From a virus (lineage: Duplodnaviria; Heunggongvirae; Uroviricota; Caudoviricetes), in the IMG/VR virus record IMGVR_UViG_2737471860_000005: DNA of 10,662 bases. One strand, given 5' to 3'. Under the pieces are notes generated by a model that was not told the DNA's origin, ran no database searches, and worked only from the letters and a program-made list of their open reading frames with translations. Below are positions 5,341 to 9,650 of this stretch, piece after piece. The position numbers and the translations under genes are program-made. Numbering within the stretch: position 1 is the first letter of the stretch; each line of letters opens with the position of its first letter.

Positions 5341-5359
5341 AAATATGACTAGGTAATTT

Positions 5360-5491
5360 ATTCAAGATAACCGGGAAAAGATTAAAAAAGACGGGATTTG
5401 ATGGGATTCAATAAGTTAGGTACTGAACGCATTCAAGATAAAACGTACCGAAAACGCTCAACGCCTCGGGAACGATAAAACATTCAAGATA
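5360..5491 (+). repeat. attL transposase-binding-site repeats (L1-L3-like)
   Basis: Three direct copies of the 10-bp core ATTCAAGATA at 5360-5369, 5431-5440 and 5482-5491. The middle copy continues AAAACGTACCGAAAAC, resembling the MuA end-binding consensus that ends in CGAAAA. Confidence 0.6.
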
Positions 5492-5542
5492 GGCGCGCCG
5501 TGTATTTTAAGCCTTTTAAGACATTTCAAAAACATCAGTATG

Positions 5543-5610
5543 GCCTTTAAAAAAGAATTTTAAAGGCACCATGAAGGCAGGTCAATGAAGTTAACCTGCC
5601 TTCGTTTTTA
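5543..5610. terminator. Tandem hairpins at the 3' end of the repressor gene; intrinsic-terminator-like on the plus strand
   Basis: Hairpin A: 10-bp inverted repeat GCCTTTAAAA/TTTTAAAGGC (5543-5552 and 5558-5567), 5-nt loop. Hairpin B: 9-bp stem GAAGGCAGG/CCTGCCTTC (5573-5581 and 5595-5603), 13-nt loop that contains the c stop codon, followed on the plus strand by GTTTTTA (5604-5610). Confidence 0.4.
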
Positions 5611-6106
5611 CACTCTCTGAGAGAATACTAGCTTCAATCTCCGCCAAAATCTCTCTGACTTGCTCGTCGGGCATATCGACCAGCATCAACGCAGCTAGGC
5701 GTTTACGGCCCTCCAGTTGCAGCAATTCTTGATTTTCCTTATCTAACAAGCGTAGCACGGTCTCAACACCTTTCCTTGCGAGCATGTTGGTTAGGGCCTC
5801 TCGTTCCTCATTGGTAAGAAACGAGAGCATTTCAATTAGCTGATCGCCTTGGCTTAAATTACTTTGTAATTCTTGTGTTTTTGGTGAATTTCCGTTACCT
5901 GTTTTTAACCATTCAAGACTAACGCCTTCACTTTCTGCAATGCGTACCAATATGCTTTCACGAGGCTCTGGTGTGTTTCCCTTTTTAAAATAGCTTTGTA
6001 ACGTGTTGATATTTATTCCCCAAGCTCTGGCGGCAGCACTTCTTGATGGATATCGCCTAATAAGATAGGCCATGCGCTCTACGATAGGTTCTTTTGCCTG
6101 CTCCAT
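5591..6106 (-). CDS. c: Prophage repressor (Mu c-like C-terminal region, HTH N-terminal domain)
   Basis: 171-aa ORF transcribed divergently from ner, with GGAGG 7 nt upstream of the ATG. The N-terminal region looks like a helix-turn-helix (SRSAAARAWGININTLQSY). The C-terminal segment LAALMLVDMPDEQVREILAEIE resembles the Mu repressor C-terminal region as I recall it. Position and orientation match Mu c. Confidence 0.7.
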   Translation of the reverse strand: MEQAKEPIVERMAYLIRRYPSRSAAARAWGININTLQSYFKKGNTPEPRESILVRIAESEGVSLEWLKTGNGNSPKTQELQSNLSQGDQLIEMLSFLTNEEREALTNMLARKGVETVLRLLDKENQELLQLEGRKRLAALMLVDMPDEQVREILAEIEASILSESVKTKAG

Positions 6107-6297
6107 AAAAGTACCTCCAGGTATTTTTCTGCTTAAAGGTTCTTTTCTATCTATCTAATTGAATAGAAATGAAATCTTAAAAAACCAATAAAAATACAAA
6201 AAATACCTTGAATAGGTACTTTTTGTGATCTACGATTTTATTCACTCGGATATCCGCGCGAATATCCGAGCGGGTAATTTTGTAGGGTAAAGGAAAG
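6107..6297. promoter_or_regulatory. Divergent early control region (Pc/Pe promoters and operators; possible enhancer)
   Basis: 191-bp AT-rich intergenic region between divergent c and ner. It contains two copies of TTGAATAG (6159-6166 and 6208-6215), the partial palindrome AAAATACC-N7-GGTACTTTT (6200-6224), A-tracts, and a possible rightward promoter TTGAAT (6208-6213), 17-bp spacer, TACGAT (6231-6236). It lies about 770-960 bp from the left end, comparable to the Mu operator/enhancer position. Confidence 0.5.
6245..6270. promoter_or_regulatory. Palindromic operator-like site upstream of ner
   Basis: CTCGGATAT-CCGCGCGA-ATATCCGAG: 9-bp perfect inverted arms. The left arm contains the self-complementary 10-mer CGGATATCCG (6247-6256), and the half-site ATATCCG recurs 12 bp later (6262-6268). 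It sits 28-52 bp upstream of the ner ATG, just downstream of the putative early promoter -10. Confidence 0.45.
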
Positions 6298-6549
6298 ATG
6301 AGACAAAGAGAAGATAGTGGCCGCGATTGGCCTTCGCTGATGATTCAGCAGGCACTCAAAGATAATGGGTGGTCTTCCTTTCGGGAGCTTTCACTCCATG
6401 CAGGTTATGCTCAGGATTCACTGAAAGCGGTAGTTCGTACACCAAACAAAAAATACGAACGCGTTATTTCTGACGCTATAGGTGTCCCGCCAGAAGTCAT
6501 CTGGCCCAGCCGATACCGTAATGATGGAATAATCAGGAAGGCGTCGTGA
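6298..6549 (+). CDS. ner: Ner-like DNA-binding early regulator
   Basis: 83-aa ORF with AAGGAAAG upstream. It contains RDW near the N-terminus and PEVIWPSRY near the C-terminus, both matching phage Mu Ner and the Ner/Nlp family as I recall them. It is the first gene of the rightward early operon. Confidence 0.8.
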   Translation: MRQREDSGRDWPSLMIQQALKDNGWSSFRELSLHAGYAQDSLKAVVRTPNKKYERVISDAIGVPPEVIWPSRYRNDGIIRKAS

Positions 6550-6550
6550 T

Positions 6551-8647
6551 ATGCAGTCGTACGTTACCGTAAATGACCTGCTCGGTGTTCCTGGAATGCC
6601 AGCCACAGCAAAAGGCATCCGACAGGCGTTACAGCGTTTTTCTCGTGGTCTTGGTGACATGAGCCGCCGTAGGGAAGGCTCAAAAGCCATTGAGTACCAC
6701 ATTGATTGCCTACCGGAAATAACACAAAAGGCACTACGTGAACGTTATGTGGAACAACTAGTAGCTACGGAGAACAACGTTTCTGAAGTAAAAGCTGTTA
6801 CTAGGAAGACACGTAATCCCGATGCTGTTCAGGCGATCGAAGCATATCGCGGTTCTCCGCAACTGATGGAAGAACGCCTGAATGCACTTACCGAAAACCA
6901 GCGTCGGGTATCTGAAGCAAGGGCAGCGCTGGTGGTGGAAGTGCTGAAGCTGGAAAGCGCCGGTAACATCGGGCGACTGAAAGCCATTAACTTTCTTGTT
7001 GAAAAGGCTCGTAAAGACGAGCTGCCAGAGCGACTGCAACAGGCCGCGATTAACGCCAATGCAAAACGTGGCGCTAATCGCACTATCAGCCGTGATCCGC
7101 TTTACCAGTGGGTACTGAAATACAACCAGTCGCGGAATGCCGCAGAACGACTGCTGTTACTGGCACCAGGTAAACGTGACGAAATAAAACCGGAAGAAAT
7201 TAGCTGGCTACCTGAATTTCTGGCGCAGTATCGCCAGGTGAACGGCAGACCTATGTCTGAAGCCTACGAGGATTTTGTCGCGGAATGGCAGCGTCGCCAT
7301 GCAGACGAACCGTACATGCTGGAGGTGATGCCCTCTTACGATGTGGTTCGTTATGCCATGAAGAAATTGCCGGAAGTGGTGAAACAAAAAGGACGCGTTA
7401 CCGGCAGTGAATACCGTCAGCTTGAAGGATTCACCCGTCGCAACTGGACCGCTATGCCGGTGAATTATGTCTGGATTGGTGACGGTCACGGTATGAAGCT
7501 GAAATGTGCGCATCCGATCCACGGGCGTCCATTCTCACCAGAAGTCACGTTTGTGATCGATGGTGGAACACGGTTTGTTGTTGGCTGGAGTCTTGACCTT
7601 GCCGAGAACGTGTTCGCCGTTGCCGGTGCAATACAGCACGGCATTCGTAACCACGGAAAACCGTTCCTGTATTACTCGGATAACGGTTCCGGTGAAACGG
7701 CAGATATGCTGGATAAAGAGATTGTCGGGATTCTGCCCCGTCTGGGCATTAACCACCCCACCGGTATTGCGGGAAATCCACAGGGACGCGGCATTATTGA
7801 ACGCCTGAACCGGACGCTGCCGATGCGTATAGCCAGGAAGTATCGCACCTATTTTGGCAAGGGTGCTGACCGGGAATCATTGCGTGTGCTCAATCGCGAT
7901 CTGCGTTCAGCATTTAATGCCCTGCAACAGGACAAACCGCTGAATGCTCGCCAGAAATCTGCAATGCGTGAGCTGCCATCATGGACAGAACTTATCGAGG
8001 CTATTCGTGAAGGTGTGGAATGGTACAACAACCGCCCACATTCTGAGCTGCCGATGAAACCTGACGGACGGCATTACAGCCCGGCAGAATTCAGAAAAAA
8101 ACGCCTGGCAGAAGAAGACACCGAAATTGAGTGGCTGAGTGATCTTGAGCTGCGCGACATGTTCCGCCCGATGGTGGAACGGCCTGTAAGACGGTGCGAA
8201 ATTCAGTGGCTGAACAATATTTACTACGCGCCGGAATTGCGTGACGAACACGGCCGCAAAGTTCTTATCAGTTATGACATTCATGACGCAGAGCGAATTA
8301 CGGTACGCCGTAAAGACGGCAGCTTTATTTGTGAGGCGATATGGAACGGCAATAAACGCGCAGCCTTTCCTGTCACGGCTGAATATCACAAACAACAGCA
8401 GCGTATTAAAGGAATGCGCAAACGTGCTGAGGAAAAAATTCGTGATGCTGAAGATGAAGGTATCCAGATTCTGGAACACAAACAGTCTGAACCATGTCTG
8501 GATAATGTTTATCGCCCGGTTGGTAATACGGTAACCGTCCAGCAACAGGATTATGAAGAGGATTACGACGAAGATTATAAACGCGATTTCTGGCTGGGTT
8601 TGCAGAAACTTGCAGCCATACAGGAACAGGATGATCCGCTGGCCTGA
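6551..8647 (+). CDS. A: Mu A-like DDE transposase
   Basis: 698-aa ORF starting 1 nt after the ner stop (TGAtATG). The N-terminal motif GSKAIEYHIDCLP resembles the MuA/Mu-repressor winged-helix motif (GVKGGKAIEY). Candidate catalytic residues are D311 (WIGDGH), D377 (YYSDNGS) and E417 (IIERLNRTL), followed by WYNNRPHSEL, typical of a retroviral-integrase-type core. Confidence 0.88.
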   Translation: MQSYVTVNDLLGVPGMPATAKGIRQALQRFSRGLGDMSRRREGSKAIEYHIDCLPEITQKALRERYVEQLVATENNVSEVKAVTRKTRNPDAVQAIEAYRGSPQLMEERLNALTENQRRVSEARAALVVEVLKLESAGNIGRLKAINFLVEKARKDELPERLQQAAINANAKRGANRTISRDPLYQWVLKYNQSRNAAERLLLLAPGKRDEIKPEEISWLPEFLAQYRQVNGRPMSEAYEDFVAEWQRRHADEPYMLEVMPSYDVVRYAMKKLPEVVKQKGRVTGSEYRQLEGFTRRNWTAMPVNYVWIGDGHGMKLKCAHPIHGRPFSPEVTFVIDGGTRFVVGWSLDLAENVFAVAGAIQHGIRNHGKPFLYYSDNGSGETADMLDKEIVGILPRLGINHPTGIAGNPQGRGIIERLNRTLPMRIARKYRTYFGKGADRESLRVLNRDLRSAFNALQQDKPLNARQKSAMRELPSWTELIEAIREGVEWYNNRPHSELPMKPDGRHYSPAEFRKKRLAEEDTEIEWLSDLELRDMFRPMVERPVRRCEIQWLNNIYYAPELRDEHGRKVLISYDIHDAERITVRRKDGSFICEAIWNGNKRAAFPVTAEYHKQQQRIKGMRKRAEEKIRDAEDEGIQILEHKQSEPCLDNVYRPVGNTVTVQQQDYEEDYDEDYKRDFWLGLQKLAAIQEQDDPLA

Positions 8648-8720: not shown

Positions 8721-9650
8721 ATGACCGATATTAATGATGTTTTCAATACGATTAGCTCACTGATTACTGACAGCGTAAAAACTCAGAGCGTTATTGCTAA
8801 AGAGGCAGGCGTGTCAGAGGCCACACTCTCGGAACTCCGCAAAGGTCGTTACAAAGGCGATACCGAAGGGATGCATGACAAATTACTGATGTGGTATCAG
8901 GCCTGGCAGAAAAGCCAGGAATTACCAGGCGCACCGCAACTTGTGGAAACACAAACCCTGCGTGATTTGCGTGAACTGTTCCAGACGGTGCGTGTTATGG
9001 GGTGTATCAGCGTTCTGGTTGGTGTGCCGGGGGTAGGAAAAACCGTTGCAGCCCGTGAATACAGTAATCGGGTATCTAATACCTGGATGGTGACCCTTTC
9101 CCCTGCACACTCAACGGTGACTGAATGTCTGCTGGAACTGGCAGACGCGCTGGGAATTGATAATCCGCAAAGGAATAAAGGTGCACTGACCCGTGCCATT
9201 CGCAAAAAACTGAATGGTACACGCGGTCTGGTTATTGTGGATGAAGCTGACCACCTGAGCATTGACGGGCTGGAACAATTACGTGCCATTCAGGATGCCA
9301 CCGGAGTCGGGATGGTATTGATTGGTAACCCCAGCCAGTTAGCCAAAGCCACACATCGGGGAACGGATGACCTTGCACGTTTGTTCAGTCGTTTCGCCAT
9401 GACAAAGCAACTACGTAAAGCCAAAAAGGCTGACGTGGTGGCAATTGCAAAAGCCTGGGGCATTGAGGGCGAAGATGAATTATCACTCATGCAGAGTATC
9501 GCGGAAAAACCAGGTGCATTACGTGTATTAACTCATACGTTGAATCAGGCGTGGCTGGCAGCCAGCGGGAAAGGCGTTCCTCTGTCCAAAGACTACATTA
9601 AAGCGGCTTTTAAAGAGGTTTACAGCAACCCGAAATTACTGAACTGGTAA
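8721..9650 (+). CDS. B: Mu B-like AAA+ ATPase (target DNA activator)
   Basis: 309-aa ORF with Walker A GVPGVGKT (residues 101-108) and Walker B LVIVDEAD (about 170-177), plus an N-terminal HTH-like segment (SVIAKEAGVSEATLSELRKG). It lies immediately downstream of the transposase, as in Mu. Confidence 0.85.
   Translation: MTDINDVFNTISSLITDSVKTQSVIAKEAGVSEATLSELRKGRYKGDTEGMHDKLLMWYQAWQKSQELPGAPQLVETQTLRDLRELFQTVRVMGCISVLVGVPGVGKTVAAREYSNRVSNTWMVTLSPAHSTVTECLLELADALGIDNPQRNKGALTRAIRKKLNGTRGLVIVDEADHLSIDGLEQLRAIQDATGVGMVLIGNPSQLAKATHRGTDDLARLFSRFAMTKQLRKAKKADVVAIAKAWGIEGEDELSLMQSIAEKPGALRVLTHTLNQAWLAASGKGVPLSKDYIKAAFKEVYSNPKLLNW

Follow-up and report, generated by a model that had tools for sequence, protein, structure and literature searches.

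The stretch of DNA analysed here, which we call the window (10,662 nucleotides; IMG/VR record IMGVR_UViG_2737471860_000005), joins a segment of the Escherichia coli chromosome from the ybiW/ybiY region to the left end of a Mu-like prophage, and the subject of this report is the leftmost gene of that prophage, which encodes a c-type lysogeny repressor. Mu is the model transposable phage, and in the textbook account a DNA-binding domain is common to its repressor and its transposase, which compete for the operator/enhancer. The prophage end (5344-5346) breaks the host gene ybiY, which codes for a glycyl-radical enzyme activase, and homology to the uninterrupted ybiY stops at 5344 in all of the 5,426 complete E. 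coli genomes compared; the window contains no more than the leftmost 5.3 kb of the prophage. From this end the repressor open reading frame (ORF) runs leftward and is followed by a 191-bp AT-rich spacer and then by ner, A and B, which run rightward, an order that matches the c/ner/A/B layout of Mu and D108 (Table 1). All four ORFs are intact, and that of the repressor has an ATG start with a GGAGG Shine-Dalgarno sequence 7 nt upstream. On profile, fold and alignment evidence the repressor joins an N-terminal helix-turn-helix domain of the Cro/C1 (XRE) type to a C-terminal half homologous to that of the Mu and D108 c repressors.

Domain make-up of the repressor

The repressor is a full-length member of the family phrog_3037 (expectation value (E) 2.1e-53; its residues 2-169 align with positions 12-187 of the 189 in the profile), which bears the label of a phage 'transcriptional repressor', and its homologues make up 152 clusters from Enterobacterales. 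Its first ~80 residues also match the helix-turn-helix repressor families phrog_4, phrog_2328 and phrog_8, and several of its homologues carry precomputed matches to PF07022 or PF01381; in our own scan of 37 diverse family members PF07022 matched 19 at E<0.01 and PF01381 matched two. An AlphaFold2 model computed with the family alignment as input (mean predicted local distance difference test score (pLDDT) 75.6) shows the N-terminal domain as a bundle of five helices (residues 8-16, 22-29, 33-39, 50-60 and 64-69, pLDDT ~75-85), without strands or a β-hairpin wing. A segment that the original prediction had singled out as helix-turn-helix-like (SRSAAARAWGININTLQSY, residues 21-39) coincides with the second and third of these helices. 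When the domain was compared with the PDB using Foldseek, 434 Cro (template modelling (TM) score 0.76, root-mean-square deviation 2.4 Å), the 434 repressor (TM 0.75, 26% identity) and P22 c2 (TM 0.71), all three at probability 0.99-1.00, were recovered together with SinR, 186 CI, C.AhdI and ImmR, over a TM range of 0.67-0.76. The best matches were all Cro/C1-type domains (probability 0.96-1.00), and no structure of the Mu repressor or of the MuA I-alpha domain was present among the best 50 matches listed. The family alignment has 16 invariant columns, and T35, L36 and Y39, which lie in the recognition helix, do not vary within the family.

Comparisons with the Mu-type winged helix gave no signal: PF02316 did not match the repressor at E<=1, alignment of the N-domain profile with a Mu-type N-domain profile using hhalign returned a probability of 0.2% (E 0.36, 9 columns), and a BLASTP comparison of the repressor with the N-terminus of its own transposase gave an E of 41. 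These profile and model comparisons identify the N-terminal domain as a Cro/C1 (XRE) helix-turn-helix without detectable relation to the Mu-type winged helix, whose absence from this protein had been proposed in the original prediction. That prediction had also pointed to a motif common to the Mu repressor and transposase, and in the Mu record it reads GVKGGKAVEY in c and GVKGGKAIEY in A; what the prediction said of the sequences proved correct throughout.

The transposase of the prophage does retain this motif, as GSKAIEYHIDCLP. Its N-terminus matches PF02316 with 28.8 bits (cutoff 23.3), its residues 1-63 align with residues 6-66 of D108 c in BLASTP (33% identity, E 2e-9), residues 1-59 of MuA are matched with an E of 5e-5, and the N-terminal part of phrog_7148 is matched with an E of 6.3e-8. 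We verified phrog_7148 as the family of Mu c and D108 c themselves (E 7e-73 and 2e-87), and its C-terminal part is matched by the repressor (see below). The profile of Mu c is consequently split over two proteins in this prophage, with its head falling on the transposase and its tail half on the repressor. The Rep protein of Mu has homology to MuA, and its binding sites are the operator/enhancer and the ends (PMC3820752, PMC3145075). Since repressor and transposase have unrelated heads here, the repressor would be unable to mimic the transposase at the enhancer as Mu Rep does; unlike the c proteins of Mu and D108, whose winged-helix head is common to the transposase, this five-helix Cro/C1-headed protein cannot be a paralogous competitor of the I-alpha domain.

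The C-terminal half presents the opposite picture, with a homologous region spanning residues ~86-166. In BLASTP, residues 88-159 of the repressor (72 residues) align with D108 c at 29% identity and E 8e-7, and the C-half matches positions 79-161 of 176 of phrog_7148 with an E of 1.2e-11; reciprocally, it is the C-half alone of Mu c and of D108 c that matches phrog_3037 (E 1e-4 and 6e-4). An hhalign comparison of 37 members of the repressor family with 8 Mu/D108-type repressors recovered a stretch of 84 columns (probability 95.3%, E 2.3e-8), which pairs residues 85-166 of the window repressor with 80-165 of D108 c, and the C-domains alone gave a probability of 96.1% and an E of 2.9e-9. The joint alignment of these domains is colinear with a single 2-residue gap, and its invariant positions fall within the SFLT..E and REIL motifs. 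By these alignments the C-domain of the repressor and the C-terminal half of Mu/D108 c are homologues, and the resemblance on which the original prediction rested is a significant one. The particular segment that it named (LAALMLVDMPDEQVREILAEIE, residues 137-158) does resemble Mu c, at about residues 153-175 of 196, but it precedes the determinant of protease-controlled stability rather than being that determinant. In Mu Rep the region preceding the ClpX-recognition element is a leucine-rich multimerisation domain, and by analogy the C-domain is a probable oligomerisation/regulatory domain.

The S24 peptidase profile PF00717 did not match the repressor at E<=1, and the C-half is predicted to be all-helical. 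An autocleaving repressor of the S24 type was ruled out by this absence of a peptidase match, and in the absence of such a domain RecA-type autocleavage is unlikely. A search of PDB sequences with the family profile returned weak matches only (E >= 0.028).

Between the two domains lies a linker without predicted secondary structure, which varies more in length than any other region of the family alignment. The similarity of repressor pairs with swapped heads (see below) begins within it, and it is likely to be the recombination zone between the two modules.

Two further observations concern the C-half. In many XRE-headed members its distal third (residues ~130-160, the most Mu c-like part) is replaced by at least 2-3 unrelated sequences, with the central LSFLT..LARKGVE segment and a KKAG/KKAV tail being retained in these proteins. 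Furthermore, PF07037, a family of YfeC-like transcription regulators, weakly matches the first C-domain helices (5741-5863, residues 82-122), as well as 7 of the 37 family members, several XRE-headed relatives and residues 42-132 of Mu c (23.1 bits, cutoff 22.9); there may be a relationship between the E. coli YfeC/YfeD family and the Mu Rep-type repressors.

Head diversity and exchange among Mu relatives

A profile of the C-domain was built from sequences of the window, of the XRE type and of the D108 type and run at E<=1e-3 against 1.84 billion representative proteins, and head classes were assigned with local hidden Markov models and Pfam. An exhaustive profile search was needed to reveal the Mu-type clusters, as a word-indexed search with D108 c returned only 7 relatives. 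The joint profile retrieved both head types, with E values down to 1e-28, and yielded 105 clusters of C-domain carriers. Fifty of these have a head like that of the window repressor and about 14 have other XRE heads of the PF01381 type, so that the XRE-headed form is the majority (~64 clusters); the Mu/D108 form, with its winged-helix head, is a minority of 19. The remaining clusters comprise 18 fragments, two spurious entries, one protein with no recognisable head (P0157) and one with a canonical MerR head (P0127). Two unusual three-domain arrangements were also seen, namely XRE + XRE + C-domain in P0148 and XRE + Mu winged helix + C-domain in P0187; these and P0127 could be real unusual repressors or gene-call fusions. 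By these counts the architecture of the window repressor is no exception among carriers of the C-domain.

In several pairs of these proteins the C-halves are 66-68% identical overall and the heads are unrelated. One of them is a natural domain-swap pair, P0177 with an XRE head and P0167 with a Mu-type head, which are identical over their last ~60 residues and whose genes occupy the place of c in two sister Mu-like prophages (L008 and L010, respectively). Between these prophages B is 98% identical and A is 91% identical from residue 91 to its end, whereas ner is 52% identical, residues 1-65 of A have diverged and no relation is seen between the control regions. In L010, the Mu-type prophage, the repressor head resembles the head of its own transposase (39% over 62 residues), and no such resemblance is found in the XRE-type L008. 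The exchanged unit therefore comprises the repressor head, the operators, ner and the I-alpha domain of the transposase, one crossover of this cassette being in the repressor linker. The exchanged cassette parallels the difference between Mu and D108 in their repressor and transposase N-termini, which co-vary according to the passage of PMC3820752 that cites Mizuuchi et al. 1986. The combination of an XRE-headed repressor with a transposase bearing the winged helix-turn-helix was further encountered in Yersinia phages vB_YpM_5/6 and Tongde, in Pseudomonas phage VW-6B, in a Mu-like insert of Stx phages and in E. coli 06-00048. From the sequences compared, an XRE head on a Mu-type C-half is a common architecture among Mu relatives and not a one-off.

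Set beside known repressors, the window protein shares with Mu Rep (c, 196 residues) and D108 c (174 residues) the leftmost position, the orientation divergent from ner-A-B, a similar size and the homologous helical C-domain (~24-29% identity, with common SFLT..E and REIL motifs), and differs from them in its head. The c repressors of the D3112 group of Pseudomonas Mu-like phages (DMS3, MP22, JBD16C) have the same type of N-terminal helix-turn-helix at the same genomic position; this match is weak (39-40% identity over residues 4-79/91, E 2e-3 in tblastn) and stops at ~79-91, no similarity to the Mu-type C-domain being detected at the sensitivity of tblastn. The CI-type repressors of 434, P22, lambda and 186 resemble it in DNA-binding fold (TM 0.67-0.76) and, as far as its candidate operators go, in dimer-type inverted repeats that overlap a lytic promoter, but it lacks the S24 autocleavage domain of the lambda, 434 and P22 proteins as well as the C-terminal domain of the 186 type, and it belongs to a transposable element rather than to a lambdoid or P2-like phage. 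XRE-type repressors are already known in Mu-like phages (PMC8541194). Thus MuM16-1 and BcepMu, which are mitomycin-inducible Mu-like phages, have repressors with a lambda-like helix-turn-helix and an S24 peptidase (PMC8541194); their head is likewise of the XRE type, but their C-module is a LexA-type peptidase that provides for RecA-dependent induction. In an incomplete literature search we came upon no account of an XRE head fused to a Mu Rep C-half, of how far this chimera predominates, or of the cassette that is swapped. The gene is annotated 'C repressor' in phage VW-6B and its orthologue 'hypothetical protein' in RefSeq, and NCBIfam has no model for the window repressor, Mu c or D108 c.

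Control region and neighbouring genes

The spacer between c and ner contains repeated copies of the decamer AAAARTACCT, which, with up to one mismatch, occurs 7 times in the window against 1.2 expected, a number reached in none of 200 shuffles. Six of the seven occurrences lie within 6086-6223. The repeats form two inverted pairs, one at 6107-6128 (candidate operator 1), which is also conserved in E. coli 06-00048, and one at 6199-6223 (candidate operator 2), with additional half-sites at 6086-6095 and 6137-6146. The palindrome of candidate operator 2 recurs at the same position in Yersinia phage Tongde as well as in E. coli 06-00048, whereas that of VW-6B is degenerate; the left half-site is the best-conserved part of the operator. 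The positions of the palindrome and of the putative early promoter Pe, on which it is centred, are conserved in four related control regions. A promoter scan between c and ner found no consensus promoter, and a scan of the control region (6107-6297) for the integration host factor consensus found no site. The dyad-symmetric arrangement of 10-bp half-sites, in which the window differs from Mu and D108, would fit a dimeric head of the Cro/C1 type. The centres of the two candidate operator pairs are 93.5 bp apart, or about nine helical turns; as a speculation, this spacing would suit cooperative binding by an oligomer.

A third palindrome lies just downstream of Pe. GATAWCCG repeats are conserved throughout an alignment of five loci and recur in the control regions of four related phages whose Ner proteins are alike, and because this conservation goes with the likeness of the Ner proteins the palindrome is probably a Ner operator and not a repressor site.

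Table 1. Positions of genes, protein domains and candidate regulatory sites (window coordinates unless another element is named)
Feature	Coordinates	Strand	Basis or remark
c-type lysogeny repressor gene, 171 residues	5591..6106	-	ORF list; leftmost gene, divergent from ner-A-B as in Mu
Repressor C-terminal tail, residues 161-171, ends K-T-K-A-G	5594..5626	-	Family-wide conservation
Repressor helical C-terminal domain, residues 88-160	5627..5845	-	D108 c BLASTP, phrog_7148, hhalign; all-helical in AlphaFold2
Repressor variable linker, residues 71-87	5846..5896	-	pLDDT 56-62, no secondary structure
Repressor N-terminal DNA-binding domain, residues ~5-70, five-helix Cro/C1 (XRE) fold	5897..6094	-	AlphaFold2, Foldseek, PF07022/PHROG family matches
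Helix-turn-helix, residues 22-39	5990-6043	-	AlphaFold2 helices 2-3
Candidate operator 1, inverted repeat AAAAGTACCT-cc-AGGTATTTTT	6107..6128	.	Abuts c start codon
Candidate operator 2, palindrome ACAAAAAATACC-N7-GGTACTTTTTGT	6196..6226	.	Centred on putative -35 of early promoter
Putative early promoter Pe: TTGAAT, 17-nt spacer, TACGAT	6208..6236	+	Manual reading and conservation
Candidate Ner-type operator, palindrome CTCGGATATCCGCGCGAATATCCGAG	6245..6270	.	Just downstream of putative early promoter
ner-like gene	6298..6549	+	PF13693 E 4.6e-14, phrog_769 E 6.6e-24
MuA-like transposase gene, 698 residues	6551..8647	+	phrog_310 E 1e-193, PF09299 E 2e-18
Transposase Mu-type winged-helix (I-alpha-like) domain, residues 1-65, contains GSKAIEYHIDCLP	6551..6745	+	PF02316, phrog_7148, BLASTP
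MuB-like ATPase gene	8721..9650	+	PF09077 E 1.5e-23
Repressor with XRE head, sister prophage	L008 5001-5588		Natural domain-swap pair with L010
Repressor with Mu-type head, sister prophage	L010 5001-5651		Natural domain-swap pair with L008

Beyond the control region, several features of the prophage end deserve mention. The element ATTCAAGATAA/G occurs in three direct copies between the prophage end and the c gene (5360-5370, 5431-5441 and 5482-5492), spaced 71 and 51 bp, and these are candidate end-binding sites of the transposase, equivalent to L1-L3. On the minus strand the stop codon of c is overlapped by a hairpin, GAAGGCAGGT-N11-ACCTGCCTTC (5574-5604), with a T-rich stretch after it, which may terminate transcription of c; a second inverted repeat, of 10 bp and perfect, is found at 5543-5567. 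A scan of the window with Rfam found no RNA family. The prophage is strongly mosaic: the transposase is 24% identical to MuA, despite which the segment 9660-10646 (kil and its neighbours) has 94% DNA identity to Mu, and DNA homology to Yersinia phage vB_YpM_5 (90.5%) starts inside the transposase gene at ~7135.

Proposed regulation and alternative readings

Taken together, we read the gene as encoding a Mu-like prophage's immunity repressor, a protein of two separable modules, namely an XRE head and a Mu Rep-type C-half with its tail, and would assign this reading a probability of about 0.72. The motifs, models and homologies described above let us infer how the repressor might bind its operators, oligomerise, come under ClpXP control and affect transposition. 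The head (residues ~5-70) would most likely bind as a dimer to AAAARTACCT-N2-5-AGGTAYTTTT inverted repeats. Occupancy of the one over the -35 region of Pe would shut off early transcription of ner-A-B, and the other, which abuts the repressor start codon, might allow autoregulation. The C-half (~88-160), by analogy, most likely provides oligomerisation and, together with the K-x-K-A-G tail, would probably confer conditional instability through a ClpX-type tag, RecA-stimulated self-cleavage being disfavoured by the lack of an S24 peptidase domain. A block of transposition that goes further than repression of transcription would call for sites that overlap physically but are unrelated. The two modules are swapped among natural phages, with the linker as the likely place of recombination.

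The degradation step of this scheme depends on the tail. The window repressor ends in ...SVKTKAG, and the tails of its family read KKAG, KAKAG, KRAG, KQAV or KKAV, being kept even where the preceding 30-60 residues are unalignable. Among 85 full-length representatives K is found at position -4 in 47 and at -3 in 31, A at -2 in 40, and the terminal residue is G in 28, A in 23 and V in 18. Mu c and D108 c both end in VKKAV and one D108-type protein in RSKAG, so that the window repressor and Mu/D108 c are alike in combining a basic, small-residue tail with the lack of an S24 peptidase domain. The ClpX-recognition element of Mu Rep sits at the extreme C-terminus (PMC10584840; PMC3983244, where the last ten residues are shown), and the published consensus for C motif-2 is R/H-x-K/R-K-hydrophobic (PMC3983244). 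The KTKAG tail is consistent with a candidate ClpX-type degradation tag of the kind seen in MuA and Mu Rep, with an imperfect fit.

Several observations weigh against parts of the two-module immunity repressor reading. The window repressor scores 19.1 bits with PF07022 (Phage_CI_repr), below the Pfam cutoff of 22, and phrog_3037, its family, is known from sequence alone, the orthologue being labelled 'hypothetical protein' in RefSeq and NCBIfam having no model. In the control region Pe has 8 of 12 consensus matches, which is under the threshold of the promoter scan, the scan found no consensus promoter for the c gene, and the palindrome 6196-6226 also registered as a terminator-like hairpin, though a weak one, of the minus strand. 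As to the C-half, a model of the isolated domain (predicted TM score 0.39) found nothing credible in the PDB or BFVD (probability <0.5), and given this low score and the lack of a structural neighbour its role in oligomerisation remains a predicted one. Finally, KTKAG does not strictly fit C motif-2, ending in G rather than V.

This last departure also lends some weight to an alternative that we regard as unlikely but worth keeping in view, in which the C-module only oligomerises, induction proceeds by another route such as an antirepressor, Lon or dilution, and the tail serves, for example, to modulate DNA binding. A simple K/R-x-small-small tail pattern is lacking in 31 of the 85 representatives, and SfMu, with a repressor of the D108 type, has been reported to be inducible by ultraviolet light without a peptidase domain (PMC4406740, PMC8541194), from which it follows that induction routes in this group are not uniform and which counts for a route other than ClpXP. 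Nevertheless, the composition of the tail is conserved at a set distance from the C-terminus despite the unalignable stretches mentioned above, tails are interchangeable between Mu-type and XRE-type proteins (KKAV, KKAG, KRAV), and ClpXP control via the C-terminus is the sole induction mechanism documented for Mu Rep (PMC10584840). We consider it improbable that the gene is not an active immunity repressor at all, and instead belongs to a defective prophage remnant or encodes an accessory regulator. The window does hold only the left part of the element, and the immunity region is rare, being present in 2 of the 5,426 complete E. coli genomes at >=80% coverage (identity 88%); but the four early ORFs are intact, the repressor family is under conservation as seen in its invariant columns, and the same gene stands at the c position in isolated, plaque-forming Mu-like phages, namely Yersinia vB_YpM_5/6 and Tongde and Pseudomonas VW-6B (PMC10434027).

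The two remaining alternatives deny one or the other module, and both were ruled out. That the likeness of the C-half to Mu c is due to chance or convergence of helical, leucine-rich segments is very improbable: the pairwise similarity to Mu c alone is marginal (BLASTP E 0.026 over 24 residues) and the region also attracts weak spurious matches to unrelated helical families (MgtE_N, GA, designed cages), but the profile comparisons, the colinear alignment with its invariant positions, the reciprocal matches restricted to C-halves, the retrieval of both head types by one profile and the near-identical C-halves on both kinds of head all speak against it. That the N-domain is a highly diverged Mu-type winged helix, whose fold and sites are still common with the transposase, is scarcely tenable, since even though the Mu-type domain also holds a helix-turn-helix core and Mu c and D108 c are already as far apart as 31% identity, it runs counter to the hhalign and BLASTP comparisons, the wingless AlphaFold2 model, the Foldseek matches and the family's matches to PF07022/PF01381 and not to PF02316.

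With the two-module reading of the repressor, a different immunity specificity and an altered relationship between repressor and transposase at the operators, as envisaged in the original prediction, are reasonable expectations from the sequence comparisons. A broader generalisation, which we put forward tentatively and with somewhat less than even odds, is that the C-half of Mu Rep is a portable module for oligomerisation and ClpXP-gated stability, which has been freely joined to unrelated heads (XRE, Mu winged helix, MerR and even two heads within a single protein) by recombination in the linker, with the transposase mimicry of Mu as a minority special case. Possibly, the mimicry arrangement was itself derived by capture of the I-alpha domain of the transposase.

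The hybrid repressor does not reveal a new kind of system, but these results supply an annotation for a widespread protein that is labelled 'hypothetical protein' in RefSeq. They indicate that in most relatives the C-half of the Mu repressor has been recombined onto heads of the lambda/434 type, with the transposase retaining the Mu-type domain, which suggests that the C-terminal module is a self-contained regulatory cassette; the hybrid repressor would define a separate immunity type. Natural chimeras such as the repressors of L008 and L010 could serve to separate transcriptional repression from direct interference with transposition. If the C-half is indeed a portable module, transposition would be repressed in most enterobacterial Mu relatives without any mimicry of the transposase, and the natural chimeras could be used to gauge how far the lysogeny of Mu depends on competition between repressor and transposase.

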